Positions 24,001-27,000 of a DNA stretch of 64,000 nucleotides are shown here, piece after piece. Made by a program: the position numbers. This DNA is from Escherichia coli (GTDB lineage Bacteria; Pseudomonadota; Gammaproteobacteria; Enterobacterales; Enterobacteriaceae). The stretch lies in the NCBI RefSeq assembly GCF_045037415.1, contig NZ_CP173438.1. One strand, 5' to 3'. Within the stretch, counting starts at the first letter, position 1. Every line of letters begins with the position of its first letter.

Positions 24001-27000
24001 AGGCGGGGCTGCAGGAGCTGGCGGGCAACGCTACCATGCTGTTCTACATGACGGAAGAAGGTCAGGAAGGTCGCAATGCTTTCAACCAGAAACGTCAGCC
24101 TGATTTCAGCAAATTTAAACGGAATCCGTAATGCGTAGCGCGCAGGTATACCGCTGGCAGATCCCCATGGACGCGGGGGTGGTTCTGCGCGACAGGCGGT
24201 TAAAAACCCGCGACGGGCTGTATGTTTGCCTGCGTGAGGGTGAGCGCGAAGGGTGGGGGGAGATCTCCCCACTGCCGGGCTTCAGTCAGGAAACCTGGGA
24301 AGATGCGCAAAGTGTGCTGCTTGCCTGGGTAAATAACTGGCTGGCAGGCGATTGCGAATTACCGCAGATGCCTTCCGTTGCCTTTGGCGTAAGTTGTGCA
24401 TTGGCGGAGCTGGCAGATACGCTCCCGCAGGCGGCCAATTACCGTGCGGCACCGCTGTGTAATGGCGATCCTGACGATCTGATCCTCAAACTTGCCGATA
24501 TGCCTGGCGAGAAAGTGGCGAAGGTCAAAGTGGGATTGTATGAAGCCGTGCGCGACGGCATGGTGGTGAATCTGTTGCTGGAGGCAATTCCGGATCTGCA
24601 TTTGCGTCTTGACGCGAATCGCGCCTGGACACCGCTGAAAGGCCAGCAGTTTGCCAAATACGTTAACCCGGATTATCGCCACCGCATCGCATTTCTCGAA
24701 GAGCCGTGCAAAACCCGCGATGATTCGCGTGCGTTTGCCCGTGAAACCGGCATTGCCATTGCCTGGGATGAAAGCTTGCGCGAGCCGGATTTTGCCTTTG
24801 TAGCTGAAGAGGGCGTGCGCGCGGTAGTTATCAAACCCACGCTCACGGGCAGCCTGGAGAAAGTACGCGAGCAGGTGAAGGCGGCGCATGCGCTGGGGCT
24901 GACGGCGGTGATCAGTTCTTCCATTGAGTCGAGCTTAGGTCTAATGCAACTGGCGCGGATTGCTGCCTGGTTAACGCCAGACACCATTCCGGGACTGGAC
25001 ACGCTGGATCTGATGCAGGTGCAGCAGGTTCGTCGCTGGCCGGGGAGTCCACTGCCGTTAGTGGACGTTGATGCACTGGAGCGGCTGTTATGATCTTCTC
25101 TGACTGGCCGTGGCGTCACTGGCGGCAAGTGCGGGGAGAAGCCATCGCCTTACGTCTTAATGACGAGCAACTCAACTGGCGCGAGCTTTGTGCTCGCGTC
25201 GATGAATTAGCCTCCAGCTTTGCGGCGCAGGGTGTGGTTGCGGGCAGCGGCGTGATGTTGCGGGCGTGGAATACGCCGCAAACGCTGCTGGCCTGGCTGG
25301 CGTTACTGCAATGCGGGGCGCGGGTGTTGCCCGTGAACCCTCAGCTGCCGCAACCGCTGCTTGAGGAATTGCTGCCCAATCTTACGCTGCAATTTGCGCT
25401 GGTGCCGGAAGGGGAAAACACGTTTCCGGCGTTAACGTCGCTGCATATTCAGCAGGTTGAAGGCGTACATGCCGTGGCGTGGCAGCCGACGCGTCTGTGC
25501 TCAATGACGTTAACCTCTGGTTCCACTGGCTTGCCGAAAGCCGCTGTTCATACTTATCAGGCTCATCTTGCCAGCGCCGAAGGGGTGTTATCGCTGATTC
25601 CGTTTGGCGATCACGATGACTGGTTGCTCTCTTTACCGCTGTTTCACGTCTCCGGTCAGGGAATTATGTGGCGCTGGTTATACGCTGGTGCGCGGATGAC
25701 GGTACGTGATAAACAGCCATTGGAGCAAATGCTGGCAGGCTGTACGCACGCTTCACTGGTGCCAACACAACTCTGGCGTTTGCTGGTTAACCGTAGTTCC
25801 GTTTCCCTGAAAGCGGTTTTACTTGGCGGCGCGGCTATCCCGGTCGAGTTGACGGAACAGGCGCGCGAGCAGGGGATTCGGTGCTTTTGCGGCTATGGTC
25901 TGACCGAGTTTGCCTCCACGGTGTGTGCGAAAGAAGCCGACGGTCTGGCAGACGTCGGTTCGCCGCTGCCGGGTCGGGAAGTGAAAATCGTAAACGACGA
26001 AGTGTGGCTGCGGGCTGCCAGCATGGCAGAAGGTTACTGGCGTAACGGGCAACGGGTTCCACTGGTTAATGACGAAGGCTGGTACGCCACGCGCGATCGC
26101 GGTGAGATGCATAATGGCAAGCTGACCATTGTCGGACGTTTAGACAATCTGTTCTTCAGTGGTGGCGAAGGCATTCAGCCAGAAGAAGTCGAGCGCGTTA
26201 TTGCTGCACATCCTGCGGTTTTGCAGGTGTTTATCGTTCCCGTTGCTGACAAGGAGTTTGGTCATCGACCGGTAGCGGTGGTGGAGTATGACCAGCAAAC
26301 CGTTGATCTTGGCGAATGGGTGAAAGATAAGCTGGCCCGTTTTCAACAACCGGTGCGCTGGCTGACTTTACCGCCGGAGCTGAAAAACGGCGGTATTAAA
26401 ATTTCACGTCAGGCGTTAAAAGAGTGGGTGCAACGCCAGGATTAAGAAATCATTAGTTTCACTTCGCAATTTTGCCATTCCATTGCCGTTGATAATAGGT
26501 TTATCTGTTAATCTGTAAATTGATGTGAAAACTCTTATCAAACAGGATAATGCAATGGAATGGCTGGTCAAAAAATCGTGCTGCAATAAACAAAATAACA
26601 GACATGTACTTATGCTCTGCGATGCTGGCGGCGCGATAAAAATGATCGCCGAAGTGAAGAGTGACTTCGCCGTGAAAGTGGGGGATTTACTCTCGCCTTT
26701 GCAGAATGCGCTTTACTGTATTAATCGTGAAAAGCTGCACACGGTGAAAGTTCTTTCTGCAAGCTGTTATAGCCCCGATGAGTGGGAACGGCAGTGTAAA
26801 GCGGCAGGGAAAACTCAGTAACGTTGTTTTGTTGTGGGCAGGAAAATCAGCATCAACCCGCTCATAATACAGGCTACTCCCAGTAGTGCTTTCAGCGAAA
26901 AAGTCCCTTCCCAGCCGGGAAGTACCATTGAAGCAATCCATACCAGCACATAACTCATACTGAGCAAGGCATAGGCTTTGCTTAGCGCAAGTTTATGTAG

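Follow-up and report, generated by a model that had tools for sequence, protein, structure and literature searches.

An ordinary PhoP box precedes Escherichia coli pmrD, one half-site upstream of a weak motif

The menE-pmrD intergenic region and its PhoP box

We analysed a stretch of 64,000 nucleotides (nt) of an Escherichia coli chromosome (assembly GCF_045037415.1, contig NZ_CP173438.1), hereafter the window, for the site at which the response regulator PhoP might control pmrD. The gene is separated from menE (25090-26445, plus strand) by an intergenic region of 109 base pairs (bp) and runs in the same direction, and arnF, arnE and arnT lie on the minus strand, convergent with it. RefSeq names the product 'signal transduction protein PmrD' among the matches listed, and Pfam PF11183 is present in PmrD homologues. 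A 601-bp stretch around pmrD has a match in 5,419 of 5,426 complete E. coli genomes, where it is annotated, among the matches listed, as menE, pmrD and arnF. Inside the intergenic region, upstream of the pmrD start codon at 26555, lies GGTTTATCTGTTAATCT (26498-26514), which an earlier note had described as only a weak PhoP-box-like motif, with the comment that the site was either degenerate or mis-located. The second alternative is correct. A good box, an ordinary and already described PhoP site, begins one half-site step (11 bp) upstream and shares the hexamer GGTTTA with the weaker motif (Table 1).

Table 1. Features of the pmrD promoter region, in window coordinates
Feature	Coordinates	Strand	Description
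Predicted PhoP box of the pmrD promoter	26487..26503	+	CGTTGA-TAATA-GGTTTA, direct repeat, 5-nt spacer
Distal (upstream) half-site CGTTGA	26487..26492	+	4/6 to consensus
Promoter-proximal half-site GGTTTA	26498..26503	+	6/6 to consensus; taken in the earlier note for the upstream half
Motif of the earlier note, GGTTTA-TCTGT-TAATCT	26498..26514	+	Wrong register; -3.1 and -2.5 bits
Predicted -10 TAAATT	26516..26521	+	4/6 to TATAAT; 12 nt after the box; aligned with Salmonella -10 TAACGT
Predicted start G 26527 and 28-nt leader	26527..26554	+	From homology with the Salmonella promoter mapped by S1; Shine-Dalgarno AGGA at 26544-26547
pmrD coding sequence	26555..26821	+	88 amino acids; open reading frame and translation; gene under predicted control of the box

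Both strands of the window (127,964 positions) were scanned with two position-weight matrices. For the first, we used 46 PhoP sites published for E. coli and Salmonella (PMC2908699), with both pmrD entries left out, and for the second the 25 activation sites that Zwir 2012 (PMC3335776) gives for Salmonella, likewise without pmrD. The plus-strand segment 26486-26504, which contains the box, ranked first of all 127,964 positions with either matrix, scoring 16.0 and 17.4 bits, respectively. These values fall within the range of the published sites themselves, exceeding 26 of 46 leave-one-out training scores for the first matrix and 20 of 25 for the second. When the intergenic region was shuffled with dinucleotide composition preserved, 16.0 bits was reached anywhere, on either strand, in 91 of 20,000 shuffles (0.46%), and the runner-up match within the region scored 2.8 bits. 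A box in reverse orientation was considered and rejected, as the best minus-strand match in the intergenic region scored 2.8 bits. Judged by consensus, the site consists of two direct (T/G)GTTTA-like hexamers spaced by 5 nt and agrees at 10 of 12 positions. The earlier note was wrong in seeing only a weak motif here.

Much of what the earlier note recorded about the downstream motif is accurate. The string GGTTTA-TCTGT-TAATCT is exactly present at 26498-26514, its first hexamer matches (T/G)GTTTA at all six positions and is a genuine PhoP half-site, and its second, TAATCT, matches at only two of six. The error is one of register, in that the real GGTTTA was paired with its neighbour 11 bases downstream rather than with the one upstream. 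We took GGTTTA for the second half because the Salmonella pmrD box has a weak first and a canonical second half, which prompted a look upstream. Against (T/G)GTTTA-N5-(T/G)GTTTA, the downstream 17-mer has four mismatches (8/12). Sites with no more than four mismatches occur 986 times on the two strands of the window, or about once per 130 positions, so that chance alone should place one or two in any stretch of 109 bp. With the 46-site matrix the 17-mer ranked 1,604th of 127,964, and with both matrices it scored below every one of the leave-one-out training sites; its score with the 46-site matrix was equalled or surpassed by every one of the 20,000 shuffled intergenic sequences. The matrix scan proposed in the earlier note thus detected a PhoP site above background in the region, at 26486-26504, and left 26498-26514 itself at background. 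The hexamer TAATCT falls within the 12 nt that separate the PhoP box from the -10, and its counterparts in a 16-sequence alignment of orthologous promoters (below) are TAATGT, TACTGT, TGATGT and TAAAGT, which never resemble a PhoP half-site.

One could nevertheless propose that 26498-26514 is the functional register, in which a weak site made up of GGTTTA (upstream half) and degenerate TAATCT (downstream half) explains the feeble output of E. coli PmrD. Such a proposal can draw on the perfect first hexamer, on genuine PhoP boxes that have one poor half (Salmonella pmrD, with TATTGC, and orgB) and on the functionally weak output of E. coli PmrD, although the literature ascribes that weakness to PmrB phosphatase activity. 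A box in this register would, however, end 1 nt before the -10, occluding the promoter rather than activating it. Its matrix scores, the absence of a half-site-like hexamer from any orthologue, and the fact that the published K-12 site and the footprinted Salmonella orthologue both stand in the other register make this proposal extremely improbable. The 17-mer at 26498-26514 is not a PhoP box, and only its first hexamer is meaningful.

Agreement with published sites and conservation across genera

The upstream register is the one already in the literature. Among PhoP sites compiled from published work, Harari et al. 2010 (PMC2908699, Fig. S2) give the pmrD site of E. coli K-12 as CCGTTGAT and GAGTTTAT, with three dashes between them. 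This corresponds to CCGTTGATAAAGAGTTTAT in K-12 MG1655, where the box occupies 2,373,590-2,373,606 on the minus strand, and it aligns without gaps to window positions 26486-26504, CCGTTGATAATAGGTTTAT. The comparison with the published E. coli box that the earlier note had suggested therefore places the site at a different position from the one it named. The window and K-12 sites share their genomic position, the first half-site CGTTGA, the distances to the -10 and to the ATG, and an identical downstream promoter. They differ at three adjacent bases, with TAATA-GGTTTA in the window and TAAAG-AGTTTA in K-12.

Salmonella offers the closest experimental reference. Its pmrD box, cTATTGC-CGTTT-TGTTTAt, was defined by the DNase I footprint of Kato et al. 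2003, as tabulated in PMC3335776 (Table 1), and was assigned to submotif S2 in Zwir 2012 (PMC3335776). The same source places 12 nt between box and -10 and 5 nt between the -10 and the S1-mapped +1, followed by a leader of 27 nt. The window box matches this arrangement column for column, with a weak distal and a canonical proximal half in direct orientation and 12 nt to the -10, and its predicted leader of 28 nt compares with the 27 nt of Salmonella. The two promoters differ in the distal half, which is CGTTGA in the window and TATTGC in Salmonella, and in the -10 (TAAATT versus TAACGT). A PhoP-dependent pmrD promoter is also known from Klebsiella pneumoniae, where a 'semi-conserved' PhoP box was described and PhoP bound in an electrophoretic mobility shift assay (EMSA); the K. 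pneumoniae gene differs in having another chromosomal context and in being PmrA-independent.

Conservation of the site was evaluated with orthologues collected through a PmrD alignment, which yielded 18 pmrD loci. They came from Escherichia (with E. albertii and a cryptic clade among them), Citrobacter, Salmonella (arizonae and diarizonae) and Intestinirhabdus. Seventeen promoters besides those of the window and K-12 were scanned over the 150 nt upstream of the ATG, and 16 sequences from the four genera entered a multiple alignment. In 15 of the 17 promoters, the aligned site was the best matrix match, with a score of at least 8.9 bits, and its proximal hexamer ended 48-51 nt before the ATG in the orthologous promoters. 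There were two exceptions, a cryptic-clade Escherichia in which the site was still the top match but reached only 5.8 bits, and S. arizonae, in which it ranked second with 9.4 bits. The low score of the former, Escherichia sp. MOD1-EC7003, belongs to a site at 1434-1450 of its own locus sequence whose distal half reads CGTCGA instead of CGTTGA; the change falls on the otherwise invariant T and may weaken PhoP control in this strain.

No insertion or deletion separates box and gene in the 16-sequence alignment, and the window box falls exactly on the Salmonella box. The GTTTA of the second hexamer is invariant in all 16 sequences, as are the outer T and the G of the TTG in the first hexamer, with the middle T kept in 15 of 16. 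The invariant columns upstream of the start also include TGTA and the final T of the -10 (within the -10 itself, T, A and the final T), again in 16 of 16. The weak distal half recurs in Salmonella, as TATTGC, and in E. albertii, as TATTGA. We also considered a 6-bp insertion in E. coli relative to Salmonella, as a comparison of CATTGC/CGTTGA with TATTGC/CGTTT might suggest, and rejected it on the same alignment, which sets CGTTGA on Salmonella TATTGC and the upstream CATTGC on Salmonella CATCGC.

Promoter architecture and control by PhoP

No usable -35 was found, with candidates for TTGACA at spacings of 16-19 nt matching at one to three of six positions, and a consensus scan returned no plus-strand sigma-70 promoter in this region. 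A single direct box, 12 nt to a -10 that is assigned by alignment, and a poor -35 together correspond to architecture I, to which Salmonella pmrD also belongs and which has been read as class II activation with phosphorylated PhoP (PhoP-P) in place of the -35 contact (PMC3335776). The class II, architecture I promoters of mgtA, phoP, yrbL and slyB likewise have one direct-orientation box each, which stands in for the -35 and is separated from the downstream -10 by 11-12 nt. Their boxes have two near-consensus halves (submotif S1), whereas the distal half of the window pmrD box is degenerate.

These features suggest a conventional route of control. Phospho-PhoP would bind CGTTGA-TAATA-GGTTTA as a head-to-tail dimer, and the box would take the place of the missing -35, ending 12 nt before TAAATT, so that PhoP would act as a class II activator. 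It would recruit sigma-70 RNA polymerase to a start near G 26527 and give a transcript with a 28-nt leader. PmrD would then be made in low Mg2+ and would bind phospho-PmrA, shielding it from the phosphatase activity of PmrB; the protection of phospho-PmrA by PmrD is stated in the literature. Low-Mg2+ expression of E. coli pmrD has been described as dependent on PhoP/PhoQ (PMC2565834 and PMC3140997, which both cite Winfield & Groisman 2004). Overall, we consider it very likely that the menE-pmrD region is an ordinary PhoP-activated pmrD promoter of class II with its box at 26487-26503 and its start near 26527. From sequence and homology we predict that PhoP binds in this particular strain, where the -10 and the start site lie, and that activation is of class II.

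Several points weigh against this assignment. The predicted -10 agrees with TATAAT at just four of six positions. The matrices prefer T-rich sequence, which lets AT-rich intergenic DNA score high more easily, and the 0.46% of shuffles that reach the score of the box is low but not negligible. A literature search that did not take in the primary promoter papers found no footprint, EMSA or chromatin immunoprecipitation at the E. coli pmrD promoter. Furthermore, RNA sequencing of a K-12 W3110 mgrB deletion, in which PhoPQ is hyperactive, recorded pmrD at 0.31-fold while phoP rose 7.6-fold (PMC8355897, Table 4), which is the opposite of simple PhoP activation.

The shuffling frequency and the outcome of the literature search could be taken to mean that AT-rich DNA has produced the box by chance and that PhoP controls E. 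coli pmrD indirectly. A chance match would not be expected to rank first in 64 kb, to keep the informative matrix columns invariant across four genera, or to coincide in position with a Salmonella site that has been footprinted and to keep the canonical 12-nt distance to the -10, and K. pneumoniae PhoP does bind the pmrD promoter of its own species in EMSA. We therefore regard an accidental match as highly improbable.

The fall of pmrD in the mgrB deletion, where PhoP is very high, invites a more elaborate reading in which CGTTGA, GGTTTA and TAATCT form an array of three hexamers, the third being bound cooperatively at high PhoP-P and damping transcription through its overlap with the -10. All three hexamers do stand in exact 11-bp phase, and the TCTG-TAA-TGTA block between box and -10 is unusually conserved across genera. 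The third hexamer, however, agrees with a half-site at only two of six positions, conservation of the block is explained equally well by the adjacent -10 and by short evolutionary distances, and no precedent was found in the PhoP site tables of PMC3335776 and PMC2908699. An array of this kind appears very unlikely, and a single two-hexamer box remains our preferred description of the promoter.

Two further observations concern the same DNA. On the minus strand, 26519..26492 contains a sigma-70-like TTTACA-16 nt-TATTAT (10/12) that overlaps the PhoP box and reads antisense into menE at its 3' end; its TATTAT is found only in the window allele, K-12 having CTTTAT. At the start of the gene, three ATGs in 5-nt steps at 26550-26562 (ATGCAATGGAATG) cover all three reading frames, an arrangement that Huynh & McPhee term a 'start-site array' at pmrD, with the second ATG being that of pmrD itself. 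In the alleles of strains E118 and EcE.ESBL.COL, GGGTGGTGCA replaces GGATAATGCA, so that the first ATG is lost and the Shine-Dalgarno spacer is different. The locus can also be lost: in E. coli strain 720632 (NZ_CP025842.1, a human stool isolate), menE is followed directly by IS1A and then by ais, a deletion that has removed pmrD together with the entire arn operon.

Neighbouring matches, promoter alleles and implications

The PhoP box of Salmonella pmrD is preceded, about 35 bp upstream, by a PmrA (BasR) box, ATTAAT-GTCAG-GTTAAT, that mediates negative feedback. A box of this type (YTTAAK-N5-YTTAAK) was not found at the aligned place in the window, which reads CATTAG-TTTCA-CTTCGC, with at least four mismatches. 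The PmrA scan had a positive control in CTTAAGGTTAAGTTAAT at 34264-34280 (minus strand), upstream of arnB (33026-34198, minus strand); with one mismatch, it is the window's best fit to a PmrA/BasR box, and it is located at the promoter of the arn operon. A PmrA-box-like repeat, ATTAAG-AAATC-ATTAGT, extends over the menE stop codon at 26441-26457, with three mismatches on the plus strand and two on the minus strand, and the two strands of the window hold 37 matches as good. The place aligned with the Salmonella PmrA box lies 11 bp downstream of it and the PhoP box 30 bp downstream. The repeat also occurs in E. albertii and, in a better form, in Citrobacter (CTTAAG-AAAAC-ATTAAA), and the K-12 allele has AATAAT-TAACC-CTCCGT at this place.

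Other matches to the PhoP matrix or consensus were noted in the window. The second and third ranks are held by TTATTTAAGAAGTATTTAG (15.7 bits) and TTATTTTTTCGGCGTTTAA (13.4 bits), which lie at 35671-35709 on the plus strand, upstream of yfaZ (35818-36360); TTATTTAAGAAGTATTTAG is also one mismatch from a PmrA box. YfaZ was over-expressed in an mgrB-deleted, colistin-resistant Enterobacter (PMC10434160). We rejected these matches as candidate PhoP boxes of yfaZ, given that they are not conserved upstream of the gene in Salmonella, C. rodentium, Klebsiella, Enterobacter or Leclercia, where conservation is limited to GTTACAAT and a downstream TTGATT...TACAAT promoter. They probably arose by chance in AT-rich DNA. 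Within menE, 270 bp upstream of the pmrD box, lies GGTTTT-GCAGG-TGTTTA (26217-26233, plus strand; 11/12, 13.05 bits). No other site in the window comes within one mismatch of the consensus, and by our estimate about one such site is expected by chance per 64 kb.

The pmrD promoter itself is widespread in E. coli, with 4,997 of the 5,011 complete genomes that have a match to its 67-nt core showing at least 95% identity. Two exact forms of this core are common. The window allele, with TAATA-GGTTTA, is found in 654 genomes and the K-12 allele, with TAAAG-AGTTTA, in 3,605. The former carries the consensus G at the first position of the second hexamer where K-12 has A, and scores 16.0 bits against 13.2 bits for K-12, a difference of 2.8 bits in favour of the window. 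A 241-bp query over the menE-pmrD intergenic region separated the genomes into two allele classes, with 648 at 99% identity or more, 4,728 at 90-95% and almost none between; the differences cluster just past the menE stop codon (26430-26470) and at the three box bases (26496-26498). Strain 95-3192 combines K-12-like flanks with a window-type box, a mosaic that suggests recombination. As the window allele has the consensus G and a PmrA-box-like repeat that is missing in K-12, the two common alleles could differ in function between lineages, in the strength of PhoP activation and possibly in PmrA feedback. We consider such a difference unlikely.

For most purposes, the re-registration of the pmrD box has little importance beyond correct annotation. 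It does illustrate how boxes of the pmrD type can be mis-registered, because their distal half is weak and their proximal half strong, when a search anchors on the perfect hexamer and looks only downstream of it. The natural GGTTTA/AGTTTA polymorphism offers a modest starting point, open to testing, for asking whether promoter strength varies between lineages of E. coli. If the alleles do differ in function, the difference would affect the coupling of low Mg2+ to lipid A modification and to polymyxin tolerance.

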